Assembly (NCBI GenBank): GCA_964497265.1
Contig: CAZCCK010000002.1
Coordinates: forward strand, 20,614-84,613
Source: Candidatus Woesearchaeota archaeon
Lineage (GTDB): Archaea; Nanobdellota; Nanobdellia; SCGC-AAA011-G17; GW2011-AR18
Length of the DNA: 64,000 nucleotides
Direction of reading: 5' to 3'
The position numbers and the translations under genes are program-made. The notes under the pieces were generated by a model. That model was not told the DNA's origin and did not search any database. It worked only from the letters and a program-made list of their open reading frames with translations. Below are positions 4,747-58,863 of this stretch, piece by piece (position 1 is the stretch's first letter; every line of letters begins with the position of its first letter).

Positions 4747-4767
4747 GGGGTTTCTTCTGGTTTGAGA

Positions 4768-6947: not shown

Positions 6948-7218
6948 TTACTTGAATTAATTTTACCTTACTGGTCAAGCCGGATTTTATCAATACTTTT
7001 TTCCCTAGTTCTTTGGACAAGAGTTTGAGGAGGGCTTTATTCGCGCGGTTATTTTCGGCAGGTTCTTGAAGTGAAACTAAGTAAGCTTGATGTTCAAGGG
7101 AATAACTAAGAAATTTATTTTCACAAGCGTTTGTTTTTACAATCACTTTAAAGATGTCTGGAAGCATACAGAAATTTTAACAGGAAACTATTTAAAGGTA
7201 GATCAAATTGCGGTTTCA

Positions 7219-9873: not shown

Positions 9874-9903
9874 TTTTAAAAGGTTTTGCTAGTTGCTAGA
9901 AAG

Positions 9904-11577
9904 ATGCGAAATGCAACTAAAAAGCTTGTTTATTTTTATTTGTTTTTAGTGATAGCAAAAATCATTCTTTCTTTATTTGTTACCGCTCCTTCTGTATTCT
10001 CAGACGAGTACGTATACGCAAAGTTAGCAAGAGGTATTTTTTTTAGTGGAGAATTAAAAATTCATCAAGGAATTTTTACGACTCAGCAAATGCCGTTTTA
10101 TCCATTAGTTATTTCAATTGCTTATATTTTAAAAGATGTGGATCTAGTCTATCTAGTGATAAAAGGGCTGAATGCGCTATTACTAACATTGAGTATATTT
10201 CCAGTATTTTATTTAGCGAAGGATTTTGTCGATGAGAAAAAAGCTTTTTTTGTTGCAGCGATAGTGAGTTTTATTCCTAGTCTGTTTATTACTTCTTTTT
10301 ATATTATGTCTGAAAACGCGTTTTATCCCTTATTTTTATTCTGGATTTTTTTTACGTATAAAGCGCTGAAAGAAGAAAGTTCTTCTTATTTTATTCTTGC
10401 AGGCGGAGCATTAGGACTATGTTTCTTATCAAGGTTTATTGCTTTAGGATTAATTCCGGTTTTATTTTTAGTAAGTATTTTAAAAGTAAAAAAGGTAGGG
10501 TTAAAAAATATAGTATACTACTACACCCCCCCATTAGGAATGATTGCGTTGTGGTTCTTAAGGAATTTGAATTTGACAAAAGAAGCAAGTCAAGTTACGG
10601 GCGTGTATAGCGCTGTAGGAGAGAAATTAATTAATAGCGTTACCGTTTTAATTTTACCATTTGCAAATTGGATTTTGTTATATCTGGGTTATCTTTTGTT
10701 TTCTTCTGGAATTATTTTTGGGATTTACGCTCTTCTTTGTTATAAGATAAAGGACAAAAATCTAAAAATCTTATTTAGTTTATTTTTGTTAAGTTCATTA
10801 ATCTTTGTTCTTGCTGCGGCAAATGAATCTAGTTCTTTTAGAATATTTTTTGAGTCTCCATTTTTGTTTTTTACAAGAAGACCTTTAGGCAGATACGTTG
10901 AGTGTGTAACACCATTGCTAGTTCTTTTAGGTTTCATTGGATTTGAAAAGATAAAGATAAACAATCCTAATTGGAAGAAATTACTTTTATATTCAAGTTG
11001 CTTGCTTCTTTTAACAAGTCAGTTAACAATCGCGCCTTTATTCCCCTTTAATAATTCAAATGTAACTGCTTTAGGCGTTGGAAAATATATTTTAGATATA
11101 ACTTTTGTAGGAAAGTTTGTTGACACTCAAATTGTATATCCTAGTTTTTTTATTCTTGCTTTAGTTTTGGTAGTTTTACCTTGGTTTTTTTTAAAGAAAA
11201 AATCTTGGCAACCTAAATTAATCATGATCTTTTTTATCGTATCTTCAATAGCTGCTTTTGGAGTGACCTACAAAGAAAGTGAGAAATGGTCACAAAGTCC
11301 TCAAATGAAATTTGGTCACGAAATTGAGAAAGAATATCCTTCAAGTAAAATAATTCTCTTTGATGAAAGAGATTGTGTTGAGCAACTTTCGTTAACCCAA
11401 GAGGGAGAGATTTGTGAAAAGAGTAAAAAATCTACCTTAATGGGATTTTGGTTGAATAAGGACATAATAATTGGAAATGTGGAAACGCAAAAAGCGGATT
11501 TAGTTATAAGTAAACATCAGCTAAACTTAAAAAAGGTTAAGGATTTAAATGGAGGCGTTTTTGTGTATCAACCATGA
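9904..11577 (+). CDS. GT-C superfamily membrane glycosyltransferase (ArnT/PMT/GT39-83-like), lipid-linked-sugar dependent
   Basis: About 13 predicted TM helices. Conserved acidic DE motif in the first extracytoplasmic loop (FSDEYVYAKLARGIFF). No WWDYG motif. The track start 9886 is TTG; the first ATG is 9904. Confidence 0.5.
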   Translation: MRNATKKLVYFYLFLVIAKIILSLFVTAPSVFSDEYVYAKLARGIFFSGELKIHQGIFTTQQMPFYPLVISIAYILKDVDLVYLVIKGLNALLLTLSIFPVFYLAKDFVDEKKAFFVAAIVSFIPSLFITSFYIMSENAFYPLFLFWIFFTYKALKEESSSYFILAGGALGLCFLSRFIALGLIPVLFLVSILKVKKVGLKNIVYYYTPPLGMIALWFLRNLNLTKEASQVTGVYSAVGEKLINSVTVLILPFANWILLYLGYLLFSSGIIFGIYALLCYKIKDKNLKILFSLFLLSSLIFVLAAANESSSFRIFFESPFLFFTRRPLGRYVECVTPLLVLLGFIGFEKIKINNPNWKKLLLYSSCLLLLTSQLTIAPLFPFNNSNVTALGVGKYILDITFVGKFVDTQIVYPSFFILALVLVVLPWFFLKKKSWQPKLIMIFFIVSSIAAFGVTYKESEKWSQSPQMKFGHEIEKEYPSSKIILFDERDCVEQLSLTQEGEICEKSKKSTLMGFWLNKDIIIGNVETQKADLVISKHQLNLKKVKDLNGGVFVYQP

Positions 11578-12458
11578 AAGTTGTCGTAACAATTCCCGCT
11601 TATAACGAAGAGAAAACGTTAGGAAAAGTAATTGAAGATATTAAAAAGATTATGGATGAAAATAAGTATAATTATAAAATTCTCGTAGTTAATGATGGTT
11701 CCAGGGATAAAACTGCCGAAATAGCAAAGAAGGCGGGAGCTATTGTCTTTTCTCATCCGTTTAATATGGGTCTTGCAGAAACGTTTAGAACTGAAATGAA
11801 GAAGTGTTTGGAATTAAAGGCGGATATTATTGTGCATACTGACGCCGATGGGCAGTATCTTGCTTCAGATATTCCTCGTCTGATCGATCCGGTTGTTAAA
11901 GGAGAAGCAGATTTAGTATTAGGATCACGTTTTAAAGGAAAGATTGAGTCTATGCCGTTGATTAAAAGGTTAGGGAACAAAGCGTTTTCTCATGTAATTT
12001 CAAAGATTACCAAGCTGAAAATTTCAGATGGTCAAACAGGTTTTAGAGCGTTCACAAAAAAAGTTGCTGAGGCGATTCCGGTTATTTCTACGCACACGTA
12101 TACTCAAGAAACAATTATTCGAACTGCGCATCACAAGTTTAGAATTAAAGAAGTTCCCGTGTATTTTGCAAAGAGAGATGGAAAGTCAAGATTAATTTCT
12201 AATCCTTTTGAGTATGCGATTAAGGCTTGGATTAATATTTTTAGGATTTATAGAGATCATGAGCCTTTGAGGTTTTTCGGTCTGTTTGGAGGAGCTTTTA
12301 TTTTGTTAGGGCTAATCTTAGGTGCTTCTTTAACATATATTTTTTTAAGAACGGGCAAAGTGGGCCATATTCCTTTAACTATTTTAAGTATGCTTTTGAT
12401 TATCGTTGGATTACAGATAGTGTTGTTTGGATTCTTAGCAGATATGAATAAAAGATAA
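11574..12458 (+). CDS. GT2 glycosyltransferase, DPM1/GtrB-like polyprenyl-phosphate sugar synthase with a C-terminal two-TM anchor
   Basis: VVTIPAYNEEKTL...VNDGSRDKT...TDADGQ (DxD). Two C-terminal TM helices. ATGA overlap with the upstream gene. Confidence 0.8.
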   Translation: MKVVVTIPAYNEEKTLGKVIEDIKKIMDENKYNYKILVVNDGSRDKTAEIAKKAGAIVFSHPFNMGLAETFRTEMKKCLELKADIIVHTDADGQYLASDIPRLIDPVVKGEADLVLGSRFKGKIESMPLIKRLGNKAFSHVISKITKLKISDGQTGFRAFTKKVAEAIPVISTHTYTQETIIRTAHHKFRIKEVPVYFAKRDGKSRLISNPFEYAIKAWINIFRIYRDHEPLRFFGLFGGAFILLGLILGASLTYIFLRTGKVGHIPLTILSMLLIIVGLQIVLFGFLADMNKR

Positions 12459-13779: not shown

Positions 13780-14139
13780 ATGGAAAAGTACATTCAAGAG
13801 TTAATGAAAGTCAAGGGTATTCTTGACGCTAAACCAATAGAAGGAACTCAGAAGAATGTGTTAACCAATTTAGAAAGTGAAAACAATATTGGTATGTTAG
13901 CGTGTTTACAAAGAACCAATGTGGTGGTAGTAGTTCATAATGAAGCGTTCCGCAAGCCTCTTGGATCGTTAGTTCAGGTTGAGGAGGGAAAGGTAGTGTT
14001 TCCAGGGTTGCCTTTTCCTGAAGTAAAGGCGAAAAACGTCATCTCCGCCTCTCCGTCTAAGGATGCGCACGATTTTTTAAGAAGAGAATTTGGATGGGAA
14101 GAAAATACTTTAGCGACGATTCTTATTGGTTTTGATTAG
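13780..14139 (+). CDS. Hypothetical small protein
   Basis: ORF in a divergent intergenic region. No recognisable motif. Confidence 0.3.
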   Translation: MEKYIQELMKVKGILDAKPIEGTQKNVLTNLESENNIGMLACLQRTNVVVVVHNEAFRKPLGSLVQVEEGKVVFPGLPFPEVKAKNVISASPSKDAHDFLRREFGWEENTLATILIGFD

Positions 14140-14192: not shown

Positions 14193-15662
14193 ATGGATAA
14201 AAGCACAATTGGAAAGGGTGAAACTCTTCTCATAGTTCCTCCAAATAGAAGTTACGATCGCAGGTTGCCTTTAGGAGTAATGCAGATTTCTTCTTATCTA
14301 ACAAGTAAAAACTTCGAAAATGATATTCTTGATTTTAAAGGAATTGAGCAAGAAAAGGGAATGGAGAAGATAAAAGAAGCGATTCTGAAATCTAAGCCAA
14401 AGTTTGTAGGGATGTCTTGTTTTATTACAGAACTTCCAATTTTAAAAGAGTTATGTGAATTTATAAAGAAAGAAAACAAAGATACTGTTATTATCATTGG
14501 CGGACCTTATCCTACTGAGAGGCCAGATCATTTTGTGGAAAAAGAGATAAAGTTTGATTATTTAGTTTTAGGTGAGGCTGAAGAAAGTTTTTATGAGTTA
14601 ATTAAAGAGATTAAAGAAGGAAGAGATGGAAAAGAGTTGAAGGGAGTTGCTTATCTTAAAGAAGGAAAATTAATAAAAAATGCTAGTCGTCCTGACGTTC
14701 AGAATTTAGATGAGCTTCCTTTTCCAGCATATGAAAAAGTTGATATGAAGTATTACACTCAGCCTAATTCTTGGACGATTCGAGGAGTGTATCTTTCTTC
14801 CTTGTTGATGTTTACAGCCAGAGGATGTCCTTATGTGTGTAAGTTTTGTACGGTGAGAGATAGAAGGCCGAGGATGATGAGTCCTAAGAAGATTGTCGAT
14901 CATTTAGAATTATTAGTTAAGAATTATAAGATTGATGGTATTCAATTTGGGGATGATACCTTTACGTTATATCGGTGGAGAGTATATGAGATTTTCAAGT
15001 TGATTAAAGAGAGAGGAATTAAGTTAATTTATGGTATTCAAACAAGAGCAGATTTGTTAGATGAGGAGTTAGTAAAGTTCTTGAAAGAAAATGGAGTTAT
15101 TCAAGTAAACATGGGTATTGAATCTGGTTCTGATAAAATGCTTAAAGTGGTAGATAAACGTGTTACTGTTGCTAGAATTCGACAAACAGCTCAGGTTTGT
15201 AGAACGTTAGGAATGAGGATGTCCGCATTTATGATGATTAATATTCCTGGAGAAACCAAGGAAGATATAGAAGAATCGTTAAAGTTAGTGAAGGAAATGA
15301 AGTTTAACGTGACCCAGTGGAGCGTGTATAATCCTTATCCTGGAACAGATTTAGGAGGAGAATTAGATTTAGAAGATCTTAATGTAATTTCAAAGTTTCC
15401 ATCAAAAGAGTCGATGGAGCTTATTGAAAAGAAGTATAAGTATGCGACTTATCCTGATCGCTTGGCTGATATGTTAGCGTATATTCACTCACAAACGTTT
15501 AATGTAAGAAATGTGAAGATGATTCTTGGTGGGGATTATATTCCTTCATTTTTTAGGTTCGTTTCTTTTATGTTTGATGGAAATTATTTTAAGAAGCTTG
15601 GAACAAGTAAGAGAAAGTTAGATTATATTACCAGTATTAAAAGTCAGTTTTTAGGATTATAA
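14193..15662 (+). CDS. B12-binding (class B) radical SAM protein
   Basis: N-terminal cobalamin-binding-like domain, then the radical SAM cluster motif TARGCPYVCKFCTV (CxxxCxxC). Confidence 0.85.
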   Translation: MDKSTIGKGETLLIVPPNRSYDRRLPLGVMQISSYLTSKNFENDILDFKGIEQEKGMEKIKEAILKSKPKFVGMSCFITELPILKELCEFIKKENKDTVIIIGGPYPTERPDHFVEKEIKFDYLVLGEAEESFYELIKEIKEGRDGKELKGVAYLKEGKLIKNASRPDVQNLDELPFPAYEKVDMKYYTQPNSWTIRGVYLSSLLMFTARGCPYVCKFCTVRDRRPRMMSPKKIVDHLELLVKNYKIDGIQFGDDTFTLYRWRVYEIFKLIKERGIKLIYGIQTRADLLDEELVKFLKENGVIQVNMGIESGSDKMLKVVDKRVTVARIRQTAQVCRTLGMRMSAFMMINIPGETKEDIEESLKLVKEMKFNVTQWSVYNPYPGTDLGGELDLEDLNVISKFPSKESMELIEKKYKYATYPDRLADMLAYIHSQTFNVRNVKMILGGDYIPSFFRFVSFMFDGNYFKKLGTSKRKLDYITSIKSQFLGL

Positions 15663-16588
15663 GGTTTTGTTTCTTTTGAGAAAAAGTGTAAAGAGTATTT
15701 TGTGGAGAGGTAAAAGGTAAGATATCCTCCTATGAGTAGGGCAGGGGCAAGTGAAATAATCCGGAAGAGCAAGACTGCTAGAGCGCTGTCAAGGGGCGCC
15801 ATTCCTAATAAGAGGAGGAATCCTCCCATAGAGAGGTCAGCAGATCCAAATCCGCCTGGAATTCCAGAGAGTCTCCCAATGATAGTAGGTAAGAAGTAAA
15901 CTAAGAAAACGGTAGGATAGGTAATTTTGAAGTTGAAAGAGAGGAGGATAAATTGAAGTATGAGGGGGATGATGAAAATTTGAAGAAGGGTGTAAGGAGA
16001 AACAATAAGGAATGTTTTTTTGTTAAGGAATTGTGTTTTGACTTCTGAGAGGGTTGCGAGTGTATTTTCTTTGGTGAGATTATATTTTTTCCCTAGTTTG
16101 AGGAGGAATTTTGGAAAAATATTTTTAAATTTCCAGGAGAATTCGATAAGGGATCTGTATTTTAAAAAAAGAACGAGGATAAAAACCAAGCTAACTAAGG
16201 ATATACTGAGAACGAAGTAGATTTGTTTAGAAGAGCTAAGAAAGTAGCTGCCTGCAAAAGCGAGAGTAATGGGAAAGAGGAGGATAAGAACTGCGAAATC
16301 GAGAAGTTGTTCGAAAATAGTGATGAGTAAGGCTTTACCAACTGAAAGATCAGTGTAATGTTTCGCAGCTAGAGGTTTGCTTATGAGAGATCCTGCGATA
16401 AAGGGAGTGATTGTTGAGGAGAATTTTGTGATGCAAAAGATATAGAAAGAGTCAAGGTAAGAGACTTTTCCGTTTAAGATGCGTACAAGCGAGGCAAACC
16501 TTGCACCTAGGATAAAATGATAGAGAAGATTAAAAAAGATAGCTAAAAAGAGATAGAAACCAGAAAGTGGGGTTAAAGAAAAGCTCAT
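15644..16588 (-). CDS. UPF0104 / lysylphosphatidylglycerol-synthase-TM-like membrane protein (putative flippase-like)
   Basis: 8 predicted TM helices. GIPGGFGSADLSMGGFLLLLG matches the PGG(L/F)G signature of the flippase-like domain. Confidence 0.45.
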   Translation of the reverse strand: MSFSLTPLSGFYLFLAIFFNLLYHFILGARFASLVRILNGKVSYLDSFYIFCITKFSSTITPFIAGSLISKPLAAKHYTDLSVGKALLITIFEQLLDFAVLILLFPITLAFAGSYFLSSSKQIYFVLSISLVSLVFILVLFLKYRSLIEFSWKFKNIFPKFLLKLGKKYNLTKENTLATLSEVKTQFLNKKTFLIVSPYTLLQIFIIPLILQFILLSFNFKITYPTVFLVYFLPTIIGRLSGIPGGFGSADLSMGGFLLLLGMAPLDSALAVLLFRIISLAPALLIGGYLTFYLSTKYSLHFFSKETKPYNPKN

Positions 16589-16625
16589 AATTTTAAGAGA
16601 AAAAGTTTGTTTTTATAGTTTTGGT

Positions 16626-17891
16626 TTAGTTGTTTCCAACTAAGATAGGTTCCATTTTTTGAAGGTCTGCAGCTTCAGTTGCTTGTTCGCTGCTAGTAGG
16701 TAGAGGAAAGTTTTTTTCACGTAATGAAGCGATTCCATCTTCCTTTTCGTAGGTGATAAGTTTTTCGCAAGTTTTACAGATAGGTAAGACCGGGTTGTTG
16801 AGGAAGCGTTTTCTAAAGTCAGTAAGTTCTTTTCCGTACCAGATTTCTTCGAAAGATTGTTGGAGGATATTTCCAAAGGGTTTTTTTATTGCGAAGCAAA
16901 AGATGACGTTTCCTTCGCAGTCTACTCGTGGAATAAAGAGTTGTTTGCAGAAGTGTTCTCCATCGACAGTACGGTTATAGTAGCTGGAAAGTTTTTCTTT
17001 GAAGTAAAAGGGCATGTATCCAATAACGACGCCTCTATCAGTTGCTGCTTTTTCAGTGTCATCTAAACTAAGTTTAAGTTTTTCCATGCTATATTCTGGA
17101 AGTTCTTGATCTCCTGAAACAAGAGGGAAATTCTCATAAGTATTTGGAATGTTGAGCGCTTTAGCTGTCTCTTCAATCATTTCTTTGGTGTACATTCTTT
17201 CGTATTCTAATTCGATGTAGTTTGCTTTGGATTCCTTAGCGACATCTATAATTTCTTTAAGATGGGGCATGTTTTCTTTAGTTATAACTGAAACTAAGCT
17301 AACAAAGATACCTCGTTCTCTCATAGCTTTGACGTTTTTCATAGACTGTTGGAAGGCAAATTGCCAGCCTCTAATTTGATTGTGAATTTTTTCAGGTCCG
17401 TCAATGGAGACTACGACGCTCGACATTTCTTTGTATTTTTCGAGTTTTTCGATCATAGGTGGAGAAAGAAGTGTTCCGTTGGTTGCGATTGCTGTTTTGA
17501 TTCCTTTTGTTTGTAAGAATTCAAGAATTTCAAAGATATCTCTTCGTAAGAAAAGTTCTCCGCCAATAAGGGTAATGTTTTTGAGCGTGGGAACTTTATT
17601 GACCATTATTTTAAAGTCTTCGAAAGACATTTCTTTGGATTTAGTGGTGACAGCGAAGTTGATATAGCACATTCTACATCTTAAGTTACATTTTCCTGTG
17701 GGTTCCCAGATTAAAGAGTCTGGTAAAGGAATGTCTCCTGTTTCTAGAAATGACCTATACATTCCACGGAGTTTAGAATAATAACGGTTAAGATAAAATT
17801 TTCTTGCTACACCCATTACTCCTAAGTCTGACGCGACGAGTTTAAGTTTGGTAGAAATTTTAGTCATAGCGGAAATTTTAGGCATGGGCAT
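16626..17891 (-). CDS. Radical SAM / SPASM-domain protein (anSME/PqqE-like architecture)
   Basis: CNLRCRMCY (CxxxCxxC). GGE(L/P) and SIDGPEKIHNQIRG motifs. C-terminal Cys cluster (CEGNVIFCFAIKKPFGN...PICKTCEKL). The track TTG start at 17954 would overlap the upstream gene by 50 nt; ATG at 17891 (MPMPKI...) is more plausible. Confidence 0.8.
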   Translation of the reverse strand: MPMPKISAMTKISTKLKLVASDLGVMGVARKFYLNRYYSKLRGMYRSFLETGDIPLPDSLIWEPTGKCNLRCRMCYINFAVTTKSKEMSFEDFKIMVNKVPTLKNITLIGGELFLRRDIFEILEFLQTKGIKTAIATNGTLLSPPMIEKLEKYKEMSSVVVSIDGPEKIHNQIRGWQFAFQQSMKNVKAMRERGIFVSLVSVITKENMPHLKEIIDVAKESKANYIELEYERMYTKEMIEETAKALNIPNTYENFPLVSGDQELPEYSMEKLKLSLDDTEKAATDRGVVIGYMPFYFKEKLSSYYNRTVDGEHFCKQLFIPRVDCEGNVIFCFAIKKPFGNILQQSFEEIWYGKELTDFRKRFLNNPVLPICKTCEKLITYEKEDGIASLREKNFPLPTSSEQATEAADLQKMEPILVGNN

Positions 17892-17904
17892 CACTTTTTG
17901 TTGA

Positions 17905-18909
17905 CTAAAGCAATCTGACTTCGTTTTTAAGTGTTTCGGATTCGTAGAGGGCAAGAATGGTTTTTAGGGTTTTTAAGCCATCTTCTCCTGTAACGCGAGG
18001 AGGCCTATTTTCTTGGATGGCTAAGGTAAAATCTTGAATTTGTTGTTTGATGTGCCCCTTTTTAAAGTGGCTTCTTGTTTTAAGAGAGTCGAGTAAGCTT
18101 AATTTTGTTTGCAAGAGAGTAAAGAAGTGTACGGTTTTATTTTTAGTGAGGATTGCTGATCCTTTTTCTCCGTGAATTTCTAATCTGTCATTAAGTTGGT
18201 TAGGCAGAGTTGTGCTTGCTTCAAAGGTAGCCAGAGCTCCGTTTTTAAATTTGAGAAGCCCGACTAAGGTATCTTCAACTTCCATTTTGTAAGCGTGTCC
18301 GGCTTTGGCGTAGACAGATTCTACGTCTCCTAATAAGTAGAGCAAAAGATCGAAATGGTGGATGGCTTGAACGATTAAAACACCTCCGCCAGCAGTGGCT
18401 AGATTTTTTCTCCATCCTCCAGAAGCGTCGTAGTACTCTTTTTTTCTTGACCATTTTACAGAAGCGTTACTTAAGAAAATTTTTCCAAAAAGTCCTTTAT
18501 CTAGAAGTTTTTTTAGTTCAAGTACTGCTTCGTCAAAGCGGTATTGAGAGATAACACTAAGTTTTACATTGTGTTGTTTGCAAGCGTGAATGAGTTGTTC
18601 TGCTTTCTTTACAGAGATGTCGATTGGTTTTTCTACCAGAACGTGCTTACCTGCTTTTGCTGCTTGAATTCCTAAGTCTGCATGGGTATTGTTTGCGGTG
18701 ACGATGTCTACGGCGTTTATTTCAGGGTTAGCTAATAATTCAGTGTAGTCCGTATAGACGTGAGGGATCTCGTAGCGTTTAGCAAATGCTTCTGCTCTTG
18801 CTCGATCATTACTTCTTATTGCTAAGAGTTTAGTATTTGGAAGGGATTTTAGTGCTTGTGCGTGTTTCTCCGCGATTGATCCTGTTCCGATAAGGGCGAA
18901 ATTTATCAT
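17905..18909 (-). CDS. Gfo/Idh/MocA family NAD(P)-dependent oxidoreductase (sugar or sugar-nucleotide dehydrogenase-like)
   Basis: N-terminal Rossmann motif MINFALIGTGSIAEKHAQAL. Family-typical EKP motif (VLVEKPI). ATGA overlap with the upstream gene. Confidence 0.85.
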   Translation of the reverse strand: MINFALIGTGSIAEKHAQALKSLPNTKLLAIRSNDRARAEAFAKRYEIPHVYTDYTELLANPEINAVDIVTANNTHADLGIQAAKAGKHVLVEKPIDISVKKAEQLIHACKQHNVKLSVISQYRFDEAVLELKKLLDKGLFGKIFLSNASVKWSRKKEYYDASGGWRKNLATAGGGVLIVQAIHHFDLLLYLLGDVESVYAKAGHAYKMEVEDTLVGLLKFKNGALATFEASTTLPNQLNDRLEIHGEKGSAILTKNKTVHFFTLLQTKLSLLDSLKTRSHFKKGHIKQQIQDFTLAIQENRPPRVTGEDGLKTLKTILALYESETLKNEVRLL

Positions 18910-19679
18910 TGTTTCTCCGCGATGACGTAGTAGAGGTGAGAGTAGATATGTTTAATAAATAATGGCATTGGGAATGTTTCAAACAAGTGCATTCCTTTGA
19001 TCCAGGTTGGATATTTTTTTCCCTTCATATATTTAACTGTATTTGCTTGCCATTCCATAGTTTCTACTTTCTCTCCCATCCTGTGGAATTTCATATCTCT
19101 AAATCCGACTGTATCTGGCCAAATTGGGCAGTTCATAACATCTGTTTTTATAATTTTTAATCCGTGTTTTCTTAAAAGTTTTCTTAATTTAGAAGGAAAT
19201 AAAAATAATTTGTCTCCGTGTGTCCAGGGAACATTGTTTATTTTGTGTAAGGTTCTATGGATTGGAGATCCGACATTATATCCATCTACACAAAGAATCA
19301 TTATATACTTGCTTGAAACTCGTTTCATTTCTTGAATAATTTCATTATAATTTGGAAACATAGGTAAGCTGGCGAAGTTCCATACAAAATCATAGGAGTT
19401 ATCTTTTAACGGAAGTTTATTTAGTTCTTTAGTTTTAATTGACTGGGGTTTTAGGTTAAGCTCGGCCCATACTTTAAGTCCGGATTCATGAGGATTGACT
19501 AATCCCACTTCACATCCTGCTTCTCCAAATCCTAAAGAGTAAAGTGAGGGTAGTGCTTTTAGGCCCATTGCGGGAACTTCTAAGACTTTTTGAACGTGAT
19601 ATTTTTTTGCTATTTTTTTTAAAGATTGATTAATTGCGTATCGTTCATAATCCAATTGGAAGGTTTCAGATTCAGCCAT
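18906..19679 (-). CDS. Hypothetical protein (weakly Rossmann/methyltransferase-like)
   Basis: Coupled to the downstream oxidoreductase. VLEVPAMGLKALP has only a weak resemblance to SAM-MTase motif I. No confident assignment. Confidence 0.35.
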   Translation of the reverse strand: MAESETFQLDYERYAINQSLKKIAKKYHVQKVLEVPAMGLKALPSLYSLGFGEAGCEVGLVNPHESGLKVWAELNLKPQSIKTKELNKLPLKDNSYDFVWNFASLPMFPNYNEIIQEMKRVSSKYIMILCVDGYNVGSPIHRTLHKINNVPWTHGDKLFLFPSKLRKLLRKHGLKIIKTDVMNCPIWPDTVGFRDMKFHRMGEKVETMEWQANTVKYMKGKKYPTWIKGMHLFETFPMPLFIKHIYSHLYYVIAEKQ

Positions 19680-19739
19680 AGAAAAAAGAGAAATAAAAGC
19701 TATTTAAAGATTATTAAAAAGAAAAAAAGAAAGTAGAGT

Positions 19740-20471
19740 TTATCCTACTTTACAGCAGAGGGTTCTAAGACTCTCATACAATTTGAAATCTCCAAAGGAA
19801 GGTTCTGCACTCTGAGAGTTAGACCAGCAATATTCCCTATTCCTAGGAGCGGTAAGACCATAACCATAGGACTCGCAGCTTAGCCCTTCAGCAATACCCG
19901 ATCCGATTGGATTACTAATCGTATTGTTTAGCTGTTCCCGAACGCAGGTACGATCAGTAGAAGCGTAATATACAAAGGTAGTATCTCGAAAAATAGTAGA
20001 GCAGGCATAAGGATGTCCGGAGCTATCGAAAATAGAAGCGCATACTTGAGAAGCCGTTTTATCATTAGGTACCCGACGTTCTTCACAGAGGGGTCTAGGG
20101 GAACCTAAGTCACATACACCATTGCGACAAATTTGACTATTACATTGTTTGTTTCCGTAAGGGCATGAGCTGCCTATAGCTAGGTTGGTGGTTACGCATT
20201 TTCCTGGGTAAGCAGGGTCGGCAGTGTAACAAAAGTTTGAGGCGCAGTCTGAGTCTTTGTAGCAAGATGCTCCTATAACTAAGAAGTTTCCTGTTACTGA
20301 TTTGATGCTATTTCCGGTTAGAGTATTTGATGCGCTTGCTAAACTTGCGCCAGTTAAGCTTCCTGTAAGAGCGGTTGTGAAGACAACGACTCCGATTAAT
20401 AATATTAGAACGCCAGCAGTTACCTCTGCGGTTTTGAAATTAGAATTTTGTTGTTTTTCTACTTTTGCCAT
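19740..20471 (-). CDS. Cys-rich secreted / surface protein, paralog A (pilin-like conserved N-terminal helix, 16 Cys, ends in CCKVG)
   Basis: N-terminus MAKVEKQQNSNFKTAEVTAGVLILLIGVVVFTTALTGSLTGASLASASN is identical to that of the 52047..52622 protein. Variable Cys-rich C-terminal domain. Own TATA/(TA)7 promoter and GAGGAG ribosome-binding site. Confidence 0.6.
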   Translation of the reverse strand: MAKVEKQQNSNFKTAEVTAGVLILLIGVVVFTTALTGSLTGASLASASNTLTGNSIKSVTGNFLVIGASCYKDSDCASNFCYTADPAYPGKCVTTNLAIGSSCPYGNKQCNSQICRNGVCDLGSPRPLCEERRVPNDKTASQVCASIFDSSGHPYACSTIFRDTTFVYYASTDRTCVREQLNNTISNPIGSGIAEGLSCESYGYGLTAPRNREYCWSNSQSAEPSFGDFKLYESLRTLCCKVG

Positions 20472-20492
20472 TAAGTATCACTCCTCTTTTAA
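20300..20492. repeat. Dispersed duplicated module, copy A: ribosome-binding site plus first ~57 codons of the Cys-rich protein gene
   Basis: Near-identical at the nucleotide level to 52462..52645 (about 7 substitutions in the ~110-nt core I aligned by eye, plus one small indel). Confidence 0.8.
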
Positions 20493-20520
20493 TTAATTTA
20501 AGAAATAATTTTGATTAAAG

Positions 20521-20537
20521 GTATATATATATATATC
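20521..20537 (-). promoter_or_regulatory. (TA)7 TATA-like tract in the promoter of Cys-rich gene A
   Basis: tatatatatatatat lies about 50 nt upstream of the ATG at 20471, followed by an AT-rich spacer and a GAGGAG ribosome-binding site. Confidence 0.4.
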
Positions 20538-20542
20538 GTTTT

Positions 20543-22003
20543 TTAGATGACGCCTTCCATTGGTTTTGGTGCGCCTACAATTTCAGGTAAAGGAATATCT
20601 CCTCGTTCTTTTCTTTTTTTGATAAAGACTTTAATTCCTAGTTTAATTAGCTGAGATCTCACTCTAACATAAGGAGCGTATTTAATCAAACTCTTATCTA
20701 CAACATCTGCGATTGCTCGAAAGGGTCGATTTGCTTTGTAAACTTCATAGCCAAAGGAATCGCGGATTTCTTTTAGTTCTTGAACAGTAAAGTTAGGGTG
20801 GATCATGTTTGAATCTTGAAAGTAAGAAGTGGAATATTCGTCAGCTAACCAACCATTTTTCTTACAAAGATCGTAAAGAGGTGTTCCAGGTAGAGCAGTG
20901 AAAATAGAACAACCTAGATAATCTGGATTTATTTTTCTATTTAGTTCAACAGTCATTTGAATATCATCTCGAGTTTCGTAAGGTAAACCAATCATGTTAA
21001 AAGCGTAAGTTTGGATTCCCGCTTCTCGTGCCCATTTAAAAGTTTGAATAATTTCTTCGTCAGTCATATCACGTTCAAGGAGTTCATTGCGTAATTTAGG
21101 GCTTCCACATTCAACACCCATATTGACACGCACACAGCCAGCGTGAGCTAGGTGCATAAAAATTTCTTTTGTGACGCAGTTAACGCGTGCGTTTACATAG
21201 AAAGGAACTTTGCCTACAGCCTCTGGATATTTTTTAGAGAATTCTTTGACGCGGGTAAAGTTTAAAGTAAAGGTATCGTCATTGAAGCCCACTTCTTTGA
21301 CGTGGTATTTATCTACAACCCCTTTGATTTCTGCGATAATCTTATCTACCGATTTGTAACGAACGAATGATCCTTGTCCTTTGTAGATTTCTTTTTGTCT
21401 ACGATTAATGCAATAAGTGCAAGGATAGGGACATCCTCGGGTTGAGACAAATGTTGCTGTTCCGTTATGCCAGTCTACGTAACGTTGGTAGTCAAAGATC
21501 GTTCGATCAGGAATGGGTAATTCGTCGAGGTTAGGTAAAGGTCTTTGGGGATTAGAGATAATTTTTCCATTTTCTTTAAACCAGATGTTAAGAATATTAG
21601 TTTTCTTCTCTCCTTTAGAGATCATATCAGCGACTTCTGCGATTGCTAGGTCTCCTTCTCCAACACAGACCATGTCTACGTTTTTTTGATCAAGTACTTC
21701 GTTAGGGGCCATCGTTGCATGGTAGCCGCCAACAACTACAGGAGCAGAAGGGTATTTTGTTTTGATCATATCGATAATGTGCATGCCGTATTTGAAATCG
21801 TTGGTAGCTACGGTAATGCAGAGCATTTCTGGGTTAAAGGCGGAAGCTTGTTTAACAATTTCTTCGTCAGTAATTCCCCAGGTTGTGTCAATTAAAGAAA
21901 CTTCATGTCCATTTTGTTTGAGCATTGCGCTGACGCAAGCTAAACCCATAGAGATGTCTTTAGGAGTTTCGATAATGTTTGGATAAATGAGTAGTACTCG
22001 CAT
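20543..22003 (-). CDS. B12-binding (class B) radical SAM protein
   Basis: N-terminal B12-binding-like domain (MRVLLIYPN...). Radical SAM motif STRGCPYPCTYCIN. Paralog of 14193..15662. Confidence 0.85.
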   Translation of the reverse strand: MRVLLIYPNIIETPKDISMGLACVSAMLKQNGHEVSLIDTTWGITDEEIVKQASAFNPEMLCITVATNDFKYGMHIIDMIKTKYPSAPVVVGGYHATMAPNEVLDQKNVDMVCVGEGDLAIAEVADMISKGEKKTNILNIWFKENGKIISNPQRPLPNLDELPIPDRTIFDYQRYVDWHNGTATFVSTRGCPYPCTYCINRRQKEIYKGQGSFVRYKSVDKIIAEIKGVVDKYHVKEVGFNDDTFTLNFTRVKEFSKKYPEAVGKVPFYVNARVNCVTKEIFMHLAHAGCVRVNMGVECGSPKLRNELLERDMTDEEIIQTFKWAREAGIQTYAFNMIGLPYETRDDIQMTVELNRKINPDYLGCSIFTALPGTPLYDLCKKNGWLADEYSTSYFQDSNMIHPNFTVQELKEIRDSFGYEVYKANRPFRAIADVVDKSLIKYAPYVRVRSQLIKLGIKVFIKKRKERGDIPLPEIVGAPKPMEGVI

Positions 22004-22117
22004 CAGATTTGTCTTCTTTTGAGCTATTTAAAGTTTTTTGTTAAAAGAAAAAGTATATGGGCCGCTAAGGAAATTTTTACACAAAATCTTTATAAACTAA
22101 TTGCCTTTAGGGTTCCT
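22004..22117. promoter_or_regulatory. Divergent promoter region between the B12-rSAM (minus) and SPASM-rSAM (plus) genes
   Basis: 114-bp AT-rich spacer with two TATA-like elements (tatttaaag; ctttataaact) facing opposite directions. Confidence 0.35.
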
Positions 22118-23293
22118 ATGCCTCCACTATCTACTATTCCGAAGTTTATTGGATATAAATTGGCGAATAAAGGGTTTTTAAAAAAGACTCCTAAACCGTA
22201 TCAGATTACGTTCTCGGTTACAACAGCATGTCAATCTTTGTGTAAGAGTTGTAATATTGGATTAGTGTATCAGAAAAATCCAGCGGTAGCGAAAAATGAT
22301 TTAACAATTGAAGAAATAGAAAAGATGTTTAAAAGTATTGGCCCGGTTTACTTTTTTAATATCAGCGGAGGAGAGCCTTATCTGAGGACAGATTTACCAA
22401 AGATTGTGGAATTAGCATGTAAGTACCTAAAACCCAGGGTGATTCATACTCCTACAAATGCGTTGATGCCTGCTCTGATTGAAAAGAAAACCAGAGAAAT
22501 AATGGAAATTATAAAAAGATATGATCCGTCTGTTCCTTATACAATTAAGCCTTCTTTTGATGGAGTCGGAGCAAAGCATGATGAATTAAGAGGAGTTAAA
22601 GGAAATTTTGAAAAATTAGTTGAAACCTATAAGCGATTAAAGGTTTTACAAAAAGATTTTCCTAATTTGCATGTAGGTTTAGGAACGGTAATTTCTAAAA
22701 ATAATTTAGATACGATCAAAGAGACAGTGGATTACGCCTTAAGTTTAGAACCAGATACGTATATCAATGAAGTTGCTGAAGAACGAAGTGAGATGTTTAA
22801 TACTTCTTCAATTACTCCGAGCGCGGAAGAGTATAAGAAAGCTACTGATTATTTTTCTCAGGAAGTTGCAAAAAAGATGAAGGGTAAGTCCGGGTTATCT
22901 AGGATTACGCAGGCTTTTAGATTAGTCTATTATGATTTAACCGTTAATATTTTAAAAACTAAGACACAGGTTATTCCTTGTTTTGCAGGTACTGTTTCTG
23001 CGCATATTAATGCGCAAGGGCAGGTCTGGGTGTGTTCTATTCTAGCATACGATAAGCCTATGGGCAATATTAGAGAGGCTAATTATGATTTTTATAAGAT
23101 TTGGCATTCAGAGCAGGCTCAAAAAGCAAGGGAATCTGTAAGAAGGAAAGAGTGCGCCTGTCCTATGGCGAATGCTTCTTATTATAATATGATGATGGAT
23201 CCTCCTTCAATGTTAAAGGCGATAAAATATTTCTTATTTCCAGAGAGTTATAAAAGAAATACTCAAACTGAAGATAAAAGTAAGTCGCAATAG
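22118..23293 (+). CDS. Radical SAM / SPASM-domain protein
   Basis: TACQSLCKSC (CxxxCxxC). ISGGEPYLR and SFDGVGAKHDELRG motifs. C-terminal Cys cluster (CFAGT...VWVCS...ECACP). The track start 22019 is TTG and only 15 nt from the divergent gene; the first ATG is 22118. Confidence 0.8.
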   Translation: MPPLSTIPKFIGYKLANKGFLKKTPKPYQITFSVTTACQSLCKSCNIGLVYQKNPAVAKNDLTIEEIEKMFKSIGPVYFFNISGGEPYLRTDLPKIVELACKYLKPRVIHTPTNALMPALIEKKTREIMEIIKRYDPSVPYTIKPSFDGVGAKHDELRGVKGNFEKLVETYKRLKVLQKDFPNLHVGLGTVISKNNLDTIKETVDYALSLEPDTYINEVAEERSEMFNTSSITPSAEEYKKATDYFSQEVAKKMKGKSGLSRITQAFRLVYYDLTVNILKTKTQVIPCFAGTVSAHINAQGQVWVCSILAYDKPMGNIREANYDFYKIWHSEQAQKARESVRRKECACPMANASYYNMMMDPPSMLKAIKYFLFPESYKRNTQTEDKSKSQ

Positions 23294-24354
23294 TTTTTCC
23301 AGCTGTATTTTGATTTTTCTTCTTGAATATTTTTAGAGAATTTATCTTTTTTCTTTTCCTTATAGAAAGTAAGAATAGCGTCAGCTAGAGCTTTAGGGTT
23401 TTTAGGTGGAACAACAAAGCCAGTCTTATCATGGAGAACAATTTCGTTAAATCCGCCTACGTTTGTGCAGAGAACAGGAGTGTTATAGTGATAAGCTAAT
23501 TGAATGATTCCCGATTGTGTCCCAGAAACATAGGGCAAGATGACAAGGTCTGCTTGTTTGAAATAGCCCCCAACTTCTTCTTTGGGAATGTAATGGTCAA
23601 CAAAGGTAATGTGTTCTTTTAAGTGCAGTTGGTCAACCTGTTTTAGATATTCTTCTTTATTTTCCCAGAATTCTCCGGCGATAACCAAATGAACTTCTTT
23701 TTCTTTAAGGATAAGAGGCATTGCTTCTAAAAGGTAACGTAATCCTTTGTAAGGTCGAACGTATCCAAAAAAGAGAAGCCTGTTTTTTTTCAATTGAGGA
23801 AGCGGTAAAGAGCGTGCTTCTGGATAGGTATCATAAAGAGGATGAAAAGATTGGATAATACGAACATGAGGAGCGAGAGTGATTAAATTTTCTTTGTCAG
23901 TTTGAGAATGGACTAAAGCGAGGTCAACCGAATTGAAAAAGAGCTTAGAGAGTAACAAGTCTAAAGGTGTTTTTTCGTGAGGTAAGACATTGTGACATAA
24001 AACAACTACTTTAGCTTTTGAAGATTTTTTAATGATTTTCAAGAGAGGAAGAAAAACAGGCGTGCTAAGAGGGCTAACCCAAGGAAAGATGATAAGGTCG
24101 GGATTAAAGTTTTTTATTTTCTCACCCGCTTTTCTCCAACTGAGAGGATTTGCGTAATGTAAGAAAAATTCAGAATTTGCAAAGGGTTCTAAACGTGAAT
24201 CAAAATTGTTTTTTACAATGAAGGAGGGATATTGTTTTTTCCAACTCAAGATTTGAAGAGTGTGGTTTTTTCCAAGTTCTTGGAGTAAAGCAGCGTTGAA
24301 TTCTGAGTTTCCACCCTTATAGGGAGGAACCAGACCAAGGAGAGTAATTTTCAT
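23263..24354 (-). CDS. GT4 family glycosyltransferase
   Basis: GT-B fold. C-terminal E-x7-E region (ILPYVSGTQSGIIQLAYHYNTPVLCTNVGGFNEIV). Confidence 0.8.
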   Translation of the reverse strand: MKITLLGLVPPYKGGNSEFNAALLQELGKNHTLQILSWKKQYPSFIVKNNFDSRLEPFANSEFFLHYANPLSWRKAGEKIKNFNPDLIIFPWVSPLSTPVFLPLLKIIKKSSKAKVVVLCHNVLPHEKTPLDLLLSKLFFNSVDLALVHSQTDKENLITLAPHVRIIQSFHPLYDTYPEARSLPLPQLKKNRLLFFGYVRPYKGLRYLLEAMPLILKEKEVHLVIAGEFWENKEEYLKQVDQLHLKEHITFVDHYIPKEEVGGYFKQADLVILPYVSGTQSGIIQLAYHYNTPVLCTNVGGFNEIVLHDKTGFVVPPKNPKALADAILTFYKEKKKDKFSKNIQEEKSKYSWKNYCDLLLSSV

Positions 24355-30855: not shown

Positions 30856-31974
30856 ATGAGAATTGGTTTTATTACGACCTATTTTTATCCCGTCTTAGGT
30901 GGAGCTGAAACAAACTGTTTTTATCTTGCTAGAGAGCTTGCTAAAAAACATGAAGTGCATGTTTTTACTTCTACAACAGGTGCTAAAGAGGAGGAAACAA
31001 TCGAGAATATTCATATTCATCGTTCAAAAACTTTTTTTAGATTCGGGTATTATGCCGCGCTCTATCCTTCTTTAATGAAAAATTTATTGAGGTATCAGTT
31101 AGAGATTGTTCACGTTCATTCTTTTGGTTTTCTATGGCATGATATTTGTTTATTGATTAAGAAACTGCAATCTCCAAAAACCAAGTTTGTTATTACCCCT
31201 CACGGCCCATTTATGGCCTTGAACAATTATCGGAGTTGGAAGAGGATTTTAAAGTTTGCAGTCAATGTGTTAGAGTATTTTCCAAATAAAATGTATGATC
31301 GGGTTATTGAGGTGAATCCTGCTCAGAGAAAATGGTTGCCCAAATACGGTTTTAAAAAAGAAAATATTATTTTTATACCGAATGGTATTCCGCAAGAGTT
31401 CACAAAGAAGAAAGGAAGGTTAAATCTCCTTTCAGGAAGAGTGGTGGTAAGTTATGTTGGAAGAGTGCAGCGCTATAAGGGATTAGATCAAGTGATTTCA
31501 GTGCTTCCAGAGCTAATTAAAATCGAGCCAAAGTTGTTGTTTGTAATGGCGGGCCATCCAGAGGAGATGGATGGGTTAGTAAGATTAGCGAAGGAGAAAG
31601 GGGTGGGAGAGCACGTTCTTTTTTTAGGAAAAATTCCTGAAAGAGAAAAAGAGGAGCTTTTGGAAAGTTCAAGAATATTTGTTTTTCCAAGTAAGTGGGA
31701 GGCGTTCGGAATTGTAGTGTTAGAAGCGATGGCTAAAGGCGTTCCAATCGTTTCTACAAAAACTGAAGGAGGGAAATTTTTGATTGAAGAGGGCAAGAAT
31801 GGTTTTCTCTTTGATTATGGGGATCATGCGGTATTGAGAAATATTTTAATAAGATTACTAACGGACAAGAAGATAAGAAAAGAAATTTCTGAAAAGAATC
31901 GTCAAAAGGCTAAAAGATTTGTGTGGGAAAAAATTGCTCAAGATTTAGAAGAAGAGTATAGGCGGATCTTATGA
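30856..31974 (+). CDS. GT4 family glycosyltransferase
   Basis: MRIGFITTYFYPVLGGAETN... FPSKWEAFGIVVLEAMAKGVPIVST. Confidence 0.85.
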   Translation: MRIGFITTYFYPVLGGAETNCFYLARELAKKHEVHVFTSTTGAKEEETIENIHIHRSKTFFRFGYYAALYPSLMKNLLRYQLEIVHVHSFGFLWHDICLLIKKLQSPKTKFVITPHGPFMALNNYRSWKRILKFAVNVLEYFPNKMYDRVIEVNPAQRKWLPKYGFKKENIIFIPNGIPQEFTKKKGRLNLLSGRVVVSYVGRVQRYKGLDQVISVLPELIKIEPKLLFVMAGHPEEMDGLVRLAKEKGVGEHVLFLGKIPEREKEELLESSRIFVFPSKWEAFGIVVLEAMAKGVPIVSTKTEGGKFLIEEGKNGFLFDYGDHAVLRNILIRLLTDKKIRKEISEKNRQKAKRFVWEKIAQDLEEEYRRIL

Positions 31975-44175: not shown

Positions 44176-44206
44176 AAAAAGGAGGTTAGAAAGATTCTTA
44201 TAAATG

Positions 44207-54307: not shown

Positions 54308-54316
54308 GAGTTAGGG

Positions 54317-58859: not shown

Positions 58860-58863
58860 TTTT

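Follow-up and report, generated by a model that had tools for sequence, protein, structure and literature searches.

What are five radical S-adenosylmethionine (SAM) enzymes doing in an archaeal glycosylation island? The question is raised by 64,000 nucleotides of contig CAZCCK010000002.1 from a Candidatus Woesearchaeota archaeon (referred to below as the window; 64 kb in full, G+C content ~35%), in which five such genes are embedded among those surrounding aglB. An earlier note on this DNA had remarked that radical SAM enzymes are not part of the known Agl pathways, and the literature agrees as far as it was searched: no paper was found in the open-access literature that links them with AglB or N-glycosylation, with DPANN glycans or with the tailoring of polyprenyl-linked glycans (an absence that is weak evidence), and 'radical SAM' is not mentioned in a 2024 review of archaeal N-glycosylation. 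The reading that we favour, with a probability of about 0.55, is that the five enzymes tailor the sugars of cell-surface glycoconjugates, and that they belong to three old, uncharacterised cassettes merged beside aglB and not to two pairs of a B12-binding and a SPASM-type enzyme, as the note had proposed. It is favoured because the genes that accompany the enzymes, encoding glycosyltransferases (GTs) and oxidoreductases, are conserved.

Two of the five proteins, B12a and B12b, have a class-B architecture, in which an N-terminal Rossmann-type B12-binding domain precedes the radical SAM core. Both match B12-binding (PF02310) and Radical_SAM (PF04055) in Pfam, with E values of 1e-18 and 6e-29 for B12a and of 2.5e-21 and 1.4e-22 for B12b. 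The domain may be present in an enzyme that does not use the cofactor, as we take to be the case for AprD4. The other three, SPa, SPb and SPc, match Radical_SAM together with SPASM (PF13186), all above the gathering score. Exactly one CxxxCxxC motif is found in each of the five proteins and is intact in all of them, and the partial TIM barrel of the superfamily is seen in the AlphaFold2 (AF2) models of SPb and B12b. The number of enzymes, their division into two and three, and the integrity of their Fe-S and SAM motifs are thus as described earlier.

The three SPASM-type proteins were said to carry SPASM domains, and this has to be qualified. The seven-cysteine motif (CX9-15GX4C...CX2CX5CX3C...C) is absent; the C-terminal cysteines number five in SPa, four in SPb and five in SPc. 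When 25 SPb-family sequences are aligned, the invariant cysteines of the C-terminal part number exactly four, C288, C306, C346 and C348 (C-x17-C-x39-C-x-C). Because there are four to five of these cysteines instead of seven, the three proteins are twitch-like, with probably one auxiliary cluster. A truncated SPASM domain with about three to four cysteines is the mark of the twitch group, to which SkfB and BlsE, the closest folds to SPb, belong. In SPb and SPc the C-x17-C...C-x(1-2)-C spacing presumably resembles that of BtrN. Each twitch protein begins with a basic segment, which in SPb (residues 4-17) forms a helix in the AF2 model and which might conceivably serve as a membrane anchor. For the ATG starts at 17891 (SPa) and 22118 (SPb) there is support both from gene models in the databases and from homologues aligned at the N-terminus.

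The two B12-binding proteins are homologous to each other (27% identity, E 1e-41), as are the three SPASM-type proteins (pairwise 24-29%, E 3e-13 to 3e-33). As judged from these alignments the paralogy is real but old. The motif S(I/L)DGPExIHNQIRG, described as common to the trio, is present in SPa and SPc only; SPb reads SFDGVGAKHDELRG. The coordinates of these and the other features discussed are collected in Table 1.

Table 1. Principal features of the window, with the radical SAM genes first
Feature	Position	Strand	Basis
B12a, class-B-type radical SAM protein, B12-binding-like Rossmann domain and radical SAM core, C212/C216/C219	14193..15662	+	Pfam, motif
B12b, class-B-type radical SAM protein, C191/C195/C198	20543..22003	-	Pfam, motif
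SPa, radical SAM protein with truncated SPASM (twitch-like) domain, 5 C-terminal Cys	16626..17891	-	Pfam, motif
SPb, twitch-type radical SAM protein, C38/C42/C45 and auxiliary C288, C306, C346, C348	22118..23293	+	Pfam, alignment
SPc, twitch/SPASM-type radical SAM protein, C56/C60/C63; C280, C298, C333, C336, C340	42341..43420	+	Pfam, motif
Divergent intergenic region B12b-SPb, exactly 114 bp	22004..22117	.	Read from sequence
LPG_TM, LPG_synthase_TM (TIGR00374 flippase-like) polytopic membrane protein, last gene of operon	15644..16588	-	Pfam E 3e-29
GFO_a, GFO/IDH/MocA NAD-dependent sugar/inositol dehydrogenase-like, 13 bp from SPa	17905..18909	-	Pfam
MT11, Methyltransf_11-like, atypical motif I	18906..19679	-	Pfam E 6e-7
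Membrane-anchored Cys-rich protein, 243 aa, one N-terminal hydrophobic segment	19740..20471	-	Weak Dickkopf_N match only
GT4_b, GT4 glycosyltransferase, convergent with SPb, 31-nt overlap	23263..24354	-	Pfam
AglB (STT3), WWDYG at residue 649, then PMT2_a (GT-C fold)	7087..11577	+	Pfam, motif
GT2_a, AglJ/PpgS/dolichyl-phosphate-hexose-transferase-like	11574..12458	+	NCBIfam
Operon GT4_e, GT4_f, GT2_b, PMT2_b	30856..35427	+	Pfam
PMT2_c, GT-C-fold glycosyltransferase, divergent from SPc, 60-bp gap	41129..42280	-	Pfam
GT2_e (polyprenyl-P-sugar-synthase-like) and GFO_b (UDP-GlcNAc 3-dehydrogenase-like), beside SPc	43450..45226	-	Pfam, NCBIfam

The layout of the genes does not divide into two pairs. 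Six genes form a minus-strand operon in the order B12b, Cys-rich open reading frame (ORF), MT11, GFO_a, SPa and LPG_TM, with intergenic gaps of 71, 60, -4, 13 and 37 bp. B12b and SPa are co-oriented within this operon. B12a is convergent with it and separated from SPa, the 3' end of LPG_TM overlapping B12a by 19 nt. SPb is divergent from B12b and convergent with GT4_b. The length of the spacer shared by B12b and SPb, and the start codons, had been given correctly. Its promoter role in both directions, asserted at the same time, is an interpretation of the sequence: A/T-rich TATA-like boxes lie ~30 nt upstream of the SPb ATG (TTTATAAA) and, on the other strand, ~30 nt upstream of the B12b ATG (CTTTAAATAG), and the region would act as a promoter both ways. 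In the archaeon GW2011_AR18 (locus L012, 2168-3254) the orthologues of B12b and SPb have between them a Polbeta nucleotidyltransferase and HEPN pair, which looks like a toxin-antitoxin module.

The most extensive comparison is available for SPb. A profile search finds more than 100 clusters at 50-64% identity in Bacteria and Archaea, and a scan of one genome per GTDB species finds relatives in 499 species genomes. Among the bacterial carriers are Lachnospiraceae, Christensenellaceae, Desulfobacterales, Planctomycetota, Nitrospirota, Synergistaceae, Bacteroides and Omnitrophota; the archaeal ones are Woesearchaeota/Nanoarchaeota, Methanophagales (anaerobic methanotrophs, ANME) and Methanosarcinales. 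Cultured carriers include Butyrivibrio hungatei NK4A153, Frisingicoccus caecimuris DSM 28559 and Desulfosarcina variabilis. The loci compared here and below are the best 80 matches of each scan, related genomes included, and the neighbours are our own ORF calls labelled by phmmer with the proteins of the window, a procedure that under-counts weakly similar families.

The 80 SPb loci contain GT1/4 genes in 60 cases, GT2 in 51, a short-chain dehydrogenase/reductase (SDR) in 48, an MT11 homologue in 22 (E 1e-48 to 1e-95), a Wzx flippase in 18, a B12-binding radical SAM gene in 11 (within flanks of ~10 kb) and PMT_2 in 10. The most constant partner is a GT4 that best matches GT4_b (E down to 1e-97), lying no more than three genes from the radical SAM gene in 43 of 75 loci. 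Within the same distance in the 75 loci there is an SDR in 42 (plus 7) and an MT11 homologue in 16. A Pfam scan of 87 unlabelled neighbours added seven LPG_synthase_TM, seven SDR, ten PS_pyruv_trans and eight DUF218 proteins. The partners are concentrated close to the radical SAM gene, as seen from an internal control in which the share of GT4 among the neighbours is 13.2% within three genes but 1.7% from seven genes outwards, and that of SDR 11.4% and 0.8%. The usual same-strand order is GT2, GT4_b-like, SDR, (MT11), (LPG_synthase_TM or pyruvyl transferase) and radical SAM gene, and in bacteria the cassette is opened by genes resembling GT2_a (E down to 1e-55). No NCBIfam name is available for the proteins of this cassette, even in Bacteroides fragilis or Pyramidobacter.

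The window has the same set within three genes, namely an SPb-family enzyme accompanied by a GT4_b-like GT4 and by an NAD-oxidoreductase. SPb is overlapped at its 3' end by GT4_b, and the divergent operon next to it contains GFO_a, MT11 and LPG_TM. The convergent arrangement of SPb and GT4_b recurs in four further loci (L013, L015, L020 and L023), and in L015 the order is B12-binding radical SAM, LPG_TM, GFO_a, MT11, SPb, GT4_b, the GFO_a orthologue (E 5e-105) adjoining MT11 and SPb. MT11 and 21 homologues (L011-L090) share an atypical motif I (E-x-P-x-x-G-x-KA) and strongly conserved PWTHG and DxPxWPDxxGxRDxRLHR motifs, and MT11 may not be an ordinary class-I methyltransferase. In Desulfobacterota a protein of ~222 aa follows directly after the SPb-family gene (position +1 in L045, L054, L062, L073, L084, L086 and L088); these proteins form a similarity cluster of their own.

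As a general rule, the pairing of a B12-binding with a SPASM-type enzyme fails in both directions, occurring in 11 of the 80 SPb loci and, taking a SPASM protein within four genes of a B12b-like gene, in 11 of 53 loci. It holds among close DPANN relatives (L011, L012, L015, L020, L023 and L091-L093). The recurrent partners are instead GT4, an NAD-oxidoreductase (SDR or GFO), MT11-like, LPG_synthase_TM, GT2 and PMT_2 proteins. A GFO_IDH_MocA gene lies within two genes of every twitch/SPASM enzyme (window 17905-18909 and 44207-45226; L015 8120-9130; L172 8979-9983), and in bacteria an SDR takes its place; the pairing with an oxidoreductase is more constant than that of the two kinds of radical SAM enzyme. 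The second window position is that of GFO_b, which repeats beside SPc the pattern of twitch enzyme, NAD-oxidoreductase and GT. SPc had been placed between an aglH-like gene and a GT2 gene. GT2_e is indeed beside it, but the other flank is PMT2_c, and the AglH-like gene is two genes away. The SPc lineage is isolated, with one representative at 61% identity and the next at 38% or less, among 194 clusters at E<=1e-30. A relative of SPa occurs in a minimal GFO-radical SAM-GT2 module among ribosomal genes (L172/L173), with neither AglB nor a B12-binding radical SAM gene nearby. The equation of hyp119 in the window (13780-14139) with the 119-aa DUF4346 protein beside that relative was rejected (BLASTP E 0.8, no Pfam match).

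The B12b family, with identities of 45-74%, extends over more than 120 clusters, which come from DPANN archaea, Chloroflexota and Bacteroidales. In five loci (L098, L100, L104, L119 and L170) the orthologue lies inside an operon of the form GT4 (GT4_e- or GT4_f-like), B12b, GT2_b, PMT2_b, with partner E values down to ~1e-91 for GT2_b and 5e-107 for PMT2_b. The corresponding operon of the window (30856-35427) is without a radical SAM gene, and B12b is 9 kb away. Bacterial members are found in loci with Wzz, NTP-transferase, epimerase and Bac_transf genes, or with WecG. Orthologues of B12a (~48% identity) occur in glycan clusters of Woesearchaeota and Elusimicrobia, the Elusimicrobia sugar cluster containing DegT, AsnB, GFO, GT2, PMT_2 and Glycos_transf_4 genes. 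In another Woesearchaeote (L001) the B12a orthologue adjoins LPG_synthase_TM, GT4 and PMT genes, and LPG_TM stands beside a B12a-like gene again in L015 and L029. In one protein (P0113, 811 aa, L171 113-2548) an LPG_synthase_TM domain is fused to a B12-binding radical SAM protein. This might be a Rosetta-stone link, but as a single case on one short metagenomic contig (2.6 kb) it is weak evidence.

The linkage to glycan genes claimed for the window is therefore conserved in related and in distant genomes, but it is specific neither to Archaea nor to AglB. Proximity to aglB is seen in the window, L011, L012 and L119, while most family members are bacterial, in Wzx/Wzy-type loci, or lie far from aglB. 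The association of these families with glycan genes is ancient and spans Bacteria and Archaea, and is not an innovation of the AglB system.

Structural comparison was made with AF2 models built on family alignments, searched against the PDB with Foldseek. The models of SPb and B12b have mean predicted local distance difference test (pLDDT) values of 89.5 and 88.1, and the modelled folds are as expected for radical SAM enzymes, in keeping with the architectures assigned from Pfam. The B12b model matches AprD4 best (E 6e-25, template modelling (TM) scores 0.69/0.74), followed by MgmA, TsrM, OxsB, CysS and TokK, and its alignments with AprD4, MgmA, TsrM and OxsB are full length. By sequence, the closest PDB entry to B12a is also AprD4 (6fd2, E 3e-19), with 9ccb (MgmA) another match. 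The SPb model matches SkfB and BlsE first and then CteB, anSME, SuiB, DesII and MoaA, the best TM score being that with BlsE (0.60/0.70); a two-helix insertion is present at residues 236-281. SkfB, BlsE and PqqE are the solved structures closest in sequence to SPa and SPc. The nearest solved structures thus include radical SAM enzymes that modify sugars, namely AprD4 for B12b and B12a, BlsE for SPb, SPa and SPc, and DesII for SPb.

AprD4 acts with AprD3 in the C3'-deoxygenation of apramycin, as a radical SAM diol-dehydratase with a B12 domain working with an NAD(P)H reductase. B12a and B12b share its N-terminal Rossmann domain and radical SAM core, and the radical SAM enzymes of the window are accompanied by a GFO or SDR gene as AprD4, which acts on a sugar ring, is by a nicotinamide-dependent oxidoreductase. 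By analogy, the combination of a twitch enzyme with an NAD-oxidoreductase would fit an AprD4/AprD3-like deoxygenation, or an epimerisation by oxidation and reduction. The similarity has limits: identity is only ~17%, the AprD4 NCBIfam model scores 92-106 bits against a cut-off of 500, and AprD4 works on a soluble aminoglycoside in an antibiotic pathway, in contrast to the setting of surface-glycan assembly with membrane partners found here. The twitch enzymes known to act on sugars, BtrN (a dehydrogenase), BlsE (a decarboxylase), DesII and SpeY, likewise combine a radical SAM core with a short C-terminal domain having about four cysteines and one auxiliary [4Fe-4S] cluster. They differ from the present proteins in sequence (13-15% identity), in lacking the insertion of SPb and in not belonging to primary surface-glycan loci, and BtrN ranks only 33rd among the SPb fold matches.

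The substrates of DesII and BlsE are nucleotide-linked sugars, and that of AprD4 is a free pseudodisaccharide. The closest solved structures are thus of enzymes that work on soluble sugars, and the five enzymes might accordingly have cytoplasmic UDP-, GDP- or CDP-sugars as substrates, with the GTs using the modified donor. The NAD-oxidoreductase partners point the same way in resembling UDP-GlcNAc 3-dehydrogenase and nucleotide-sugar SDRs (GFO_a itself best matches IolG, E 1e-52, and the archaeal UDP-GlcNAc 3-dehydrogenase, E 1e-41, both below cut-off), as do the NTP_transferase and epimerase genes that accompany B12 orthologues in L003 and L006. We nevertheless consider it unlikely that tailoring takes place on a soluble donor, in view of the polytopic flippase-like protein that repeatedly adjoins these enzymes and in one case is fused to a radical SAM protein, of the insertion of B12b into an operon with a GT2 and a GT-C enzyme and, with less weight, of the basic N-terminal segments that could anchor the twitch proteins to the membrane.

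The same fold and sequence matches bring in SkfB, CteB, anSME and SuiB, and with them a form of the protein modification that the earlier note had raised, in which the SPASM-type enzymes would crosslink or oxidise Cys or Ser residues of Cys-rich secreted proteins (19740-20471; 639-4684) in the manner of anSME or the sactisynthases. A Cys-rich membrane-anchored ORF does lie within the radical SAM operon. Screening of 160 comparative loci (L011-L170) gave no homologue of this ORF, although GT, SDR and MT11 genes recur there, and it is probably outside the conserved machinery. The twitch proteins have no RRE or PqqD-like domain, only ~30-65 residues preceding the CxxxCxxC motif, and one auxiliary cluster is all that is predicted. 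Nor is there an ORF of the size of a precursor; the gaps around SPb and SPc are too small for one (<=60 bp, the B12b-SPb spacer being 114 bp). Protein or peptide maturation is disfavoured by these features, and is the least likely of the alternatives, with hardly any probability left to it.

The NCBIfam and Pfam searches do not assign the five enzymes or their cassette partners to any named family at its cut-off. The best NCBIfam equivalog scores are 53-171 bits, against cut-offs of 170-850; HpnJ, BchE, AprD4, PhpK, the MgmA type (TIGR04014), HpnR, AhbD/NirJ, PqqE, MftC, HpnH, Tes and MoaA all remain below their curated values. The five enzymes thus lie outside the characterised families, and the case that the note had named as refuting, in which they would fall into Tes, MoaA or the like, does not apply. 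The twitch proteins match AhbD, NirJ, WgkB, TIGR04053 and a generic 'twitch' subfamily best. For the class-B proteins the best models are BchE, HpnJ and ApyD (126-171 bits against 481-750), all far below cut-off for B12a, and B12b scores highest with HpnJ over nearly its full length, with 166 bits against a cut-off of 578.

HpnJ, which acts with HpnI, HpnK and HpnL in making the cyclitol-ether head group of hopanoids, and the calditol synthase Cds are class-B-type enzymes that have been proposed to remodel a lipid-attached hexose (PMC13459092). They provide precedents for a scheme in which a GT4 resembling MshA, BshA or the GlcNAc-PG synthase glycosylates a lipid, the radical SAM enzymes and oxidoreductase remodel the head group, for instance by contracting the ring to give a cyclitol, which is what HpnJ and Cds are proposed to do, and LPG_synthase_TM flips the product outward. 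In addition to the HpnJ match, this scheme draws on the resemblance of GT4_b-like proteins to the GlcNAc-PG synthase and MshA, on the SDR partner, whose best NCBIfam matches (all far below cut-off) are OleD and the hopanoid-associated sugar epimerase HpnA, on the inclusion of the GlcN-PG flippase and MprF in the LPG_synthase_TM family, and on the GFO-radical SAM-GT2 module of the SPa relative, which is distant from any AglB. The hpn cluster also combines a GT2, a radical SAM enzyme and HpnL, which we take to be a member of the LPG_synthase_TM family. The LPG_TM protein of the window has a flippase-like domain in NCBIfam, with a weak match to the GlcN-PG flippase and none to HpnL. The HpnJ score is, however, far under its cut-off, the window has no hopanoid or tetraether genes, the partners being GT4, PMT_2 and AglB, and the orthologues of B12b are tightly tied to PMT_2 and Wzx/Wzy/Wzz genes, pointing to transfer onto glycans or proteins. 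DPANN archaea are moreover generally thought to be without lipid synthesis of their own. Remodelling of glycolipid head groups thus has a minor share of the probability, and it overlaps the surface-glycan reading in that both put the chemistry on a lipid-linked sugar.

HpnR, Grs and Gmm, which methylate or cyclise lipids, are class-B enzymes too, and the earlier note had allowed for modification of the polyprenyl carrier. Methylation, cyclisation or cross-linking of the isoprenoid tail, in the manner of Tes, GrsA/B, Gmm or HpnR, could be read from weak matches to Tes and to a 'lipid biosynthesis B12-binding/radical SAM protein' family, and from the FAD-oxidoreductase genes (DAO/Amino_oxidase) found near B12 genes in L003, L005 and the window. 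With the lipid families, whose cut-offs are 360-650 bits, the scores amount to tens of bits. The families of the five enzymes are no less common in bacteria, where their setting is that of ordinary Wzx/Wzy polysaccharide loci, and their constant partners are GTs and sugar oxidoreductases and not prenyl-chain enzymes. A role in altering the carrier is very unlikely.

Returning to the tailoring of surface-glycan sugars, we infer from the partners a substrate, a stage and a type of reaction for each of three putative cassettes. The first would consist of an AglJ-like GT2, GT4_b, an NAD-oxidoreductase (SDR in bacteria, GFO_a here), MT11, LPG_synthase_TM and SPb; SPa and SPc would be divergent copies of the same logic, each with a GFO dehydrogenase and a GT2 alongside. 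The second would comprise GT4, B12b, GT2_b and a PMT_2 GT-C enzyme, and in the third B12a would work with the flippase-like membrane protein. In the proposed sequence of events a GT2 or GT4 would work at the cytoplasmic face and load a sugar on a lipid carrier of the membrane, for which dolichyl or polyprenyl phosphate is most likely. The twitch enzyme would then abstract hydrogen from a C-H of the sugar and, with the NAD(P)-oxidoreductase, give an oxidised, deoxygenated or epimerised product, on the model of AprD4/AprD3, BtrN and BlsE. MT11 may methylate this product. The class-B enzymes would methylate the sugar at an unactivated carbon or, like HpnJ and AprD4, catalyse a rearrangement or dehydration for which cobalamin is not needed. 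The LPG_synthase_TM protein would flip the modified lipid-linked sugar, and PMT_2 GT-C enzymes would transfer it to the N-glycan, a surface protein or a lipid at the outer face.

C-methylation would account for C-methyl sugars, and B12a and B12b share the two-domain class-B architecture of the cobalamin C-methylases (GenK, GenD1 and Fom3; structurally TokK, CysS, MgmA and TsrM). They do not reach the equivalog scores of these enzymes and are without the long C-terminal domains of TokK and CysS, and the island already holds at least six class-I SAM methyltransferases.

A lipid-linked substrate is suggested because flippase-like proteins, AglJ/PpgS-like synthases and GT-C transferases recur beside the radical SAM genes. 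The arrangement resembles the 'three-component' systems (ArnC/ArnD/ArnEF/ArnT, GtrA/B/V, AglD/AglS of Haloferax and DprE1/E2 of mycobacteria), where a GT2 makes a polyprenyl-P-monosaccharide that is tailored on the lipid, flipped and passed to a GT-C transferase; an AglJ-like GT2, the flippase-like LPG_TM and PMT_2 are all present here. In those systems, however, tailoring is performed by a deformylase or an FAD/NAD epimerase pair and never by a radical SAM enzyme, and the flippases are of other families. HpnI/J/K/L and Cds offer a further parallel for the lipid-linked stage, as there a radical SAM enzyme is the one proposed to remodel the hexose on its lipid (PMC13459092). We tentatively suggest, while thinking it doubtful in this full form, that the SPb cassette and the operon of GT4, B12-binding radical SAM, GT2 and GT-C enzymes represent an unrecognised ancient step common to both domains, in which radical C-H chemistry is performed on a polyprenyl-phosphate-linked sugar and LPG_synthase_TM is its dedicated flippase. 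The product would be a type of sugar (C-methyl, deoxy, epimerised or carbocyclic) that is so far undescribed, both for archaeal N-glycans and for polysaccharides of many bacteria that live anaerobically.

Several points weigh against the interpretation as tailoring of surface-glycan sugars. The reaction type is not readable from sequence, and the top folds include the peptide maturases SkfB, CteB, anSME and SuiB for SPb and the C-methylases MgmA and TsrM for B12b. The lipid-linked stage rests only on adjacency to LPG_TM and PMT_2 and on the one fusion on the 2.6-kb contig, and only ~11 of 75 SPb loci have LPG_TM nearby. There are also solitary SPb-family genes (L010/L046), and the under-counting of weakly similar families applies to all the neighbour counts. 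We also know of no unusual sugar in DPANN glycans that would need such chemistry.

The setting of the five genes, the glycosylation island around AglB that had been described, is real, and AglB has the WWDYG motif. The island is dense and occupies ~7-49 kb of the window (~40 kb), with ~15 GT2/GT4 genes, an AglH-like GT, four PMT_2 proteins of GT-C fold, two Wzx-type flippases, two GFO/IDH/MocA, one SDR and one FAD oxidoreductase, and a polysaccharide deacetylase. AglB and PMT2_a are syntenic with B12b and SPb in L011 and L012. GT2_a is a probable polyprenyl-phosphate sugar synthase, judging from its matches to AglJ (178 bits against a cut-off of 325) and PpgS (E 9e-34). The HMM match of the SDR epimerase/dehydratase (45338-46450, +) is split between residues 3-127 and 166-338, which implies an insertion of ~40 aa in its Rossmann domain. 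Genes for ThrRS and diphthamide synthase and a MoxR/VWA cluster, which have housekeeping roles or no relation to glycans, border the island. ThrRS and a ~150-aa ORF border a glycan island both in the window (4762-6947) and in the metagenome-assembled genome of a distant archaeon (L005 10278-12472), and may be a conserved boundary. Upstream of ThrRS are two large secreted-type proteins (Laminin_G_3/ConA-like and MG2/Ig-like; 639-4684, -), candidate glycoprotein substrates of the island. Beyond the island, 53426-54640 and 56435-63870 contain a Bro-N protein, a small SET-domain protein and then a DUF58, MoxR (AAA_3), VWA and DUF7408 'Bat-like' cluster, all unrelated to it. Public data contain exact or 85-88% identical counterparts of proteins of the window, among others in 'Candidatus Woesearchaeota' and Nanoarchaeota metagenome-assembled genomes such as archaeon GW2011_AR18, which marks the source as a DPANN archaeon of Woesearchaeales type. 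The 64-kb window has no tRNA genes, and its GC skew is positive in all 2-kb bins (1-64000; 0.07-0.36), whatever the gene orientation.

Radical SAM chemistry on sugars is known, being established for antibiotics (aminoglycosides and nucleosides) and proposed for the two lipid head groups of HpnJ and Cds; to our knowledge it has not been established in mainstream surface-glycan assembly. These families, their cassettes and their primary surface-glycan setting appear to be undescribed. They amount to three conserved unnamed enzyme families with fixed GT, oxidoreductase and flippase partners, one of them in ~500 species genomes, and the cultivable gut and sulfate-reducing carriers (Butyrivibrio, Frisingicoccus, Pyramidobacter and Desulfosarcina) make the question experimentally tractable. 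Were the lipid-linked stage correct, it would add a new tailoring step to the GT2-flippase-GT-C paradigm. Unusual sugars would then be predicted on the cell surfaces of DPANN archaea, which mediate symbiotic attachment.

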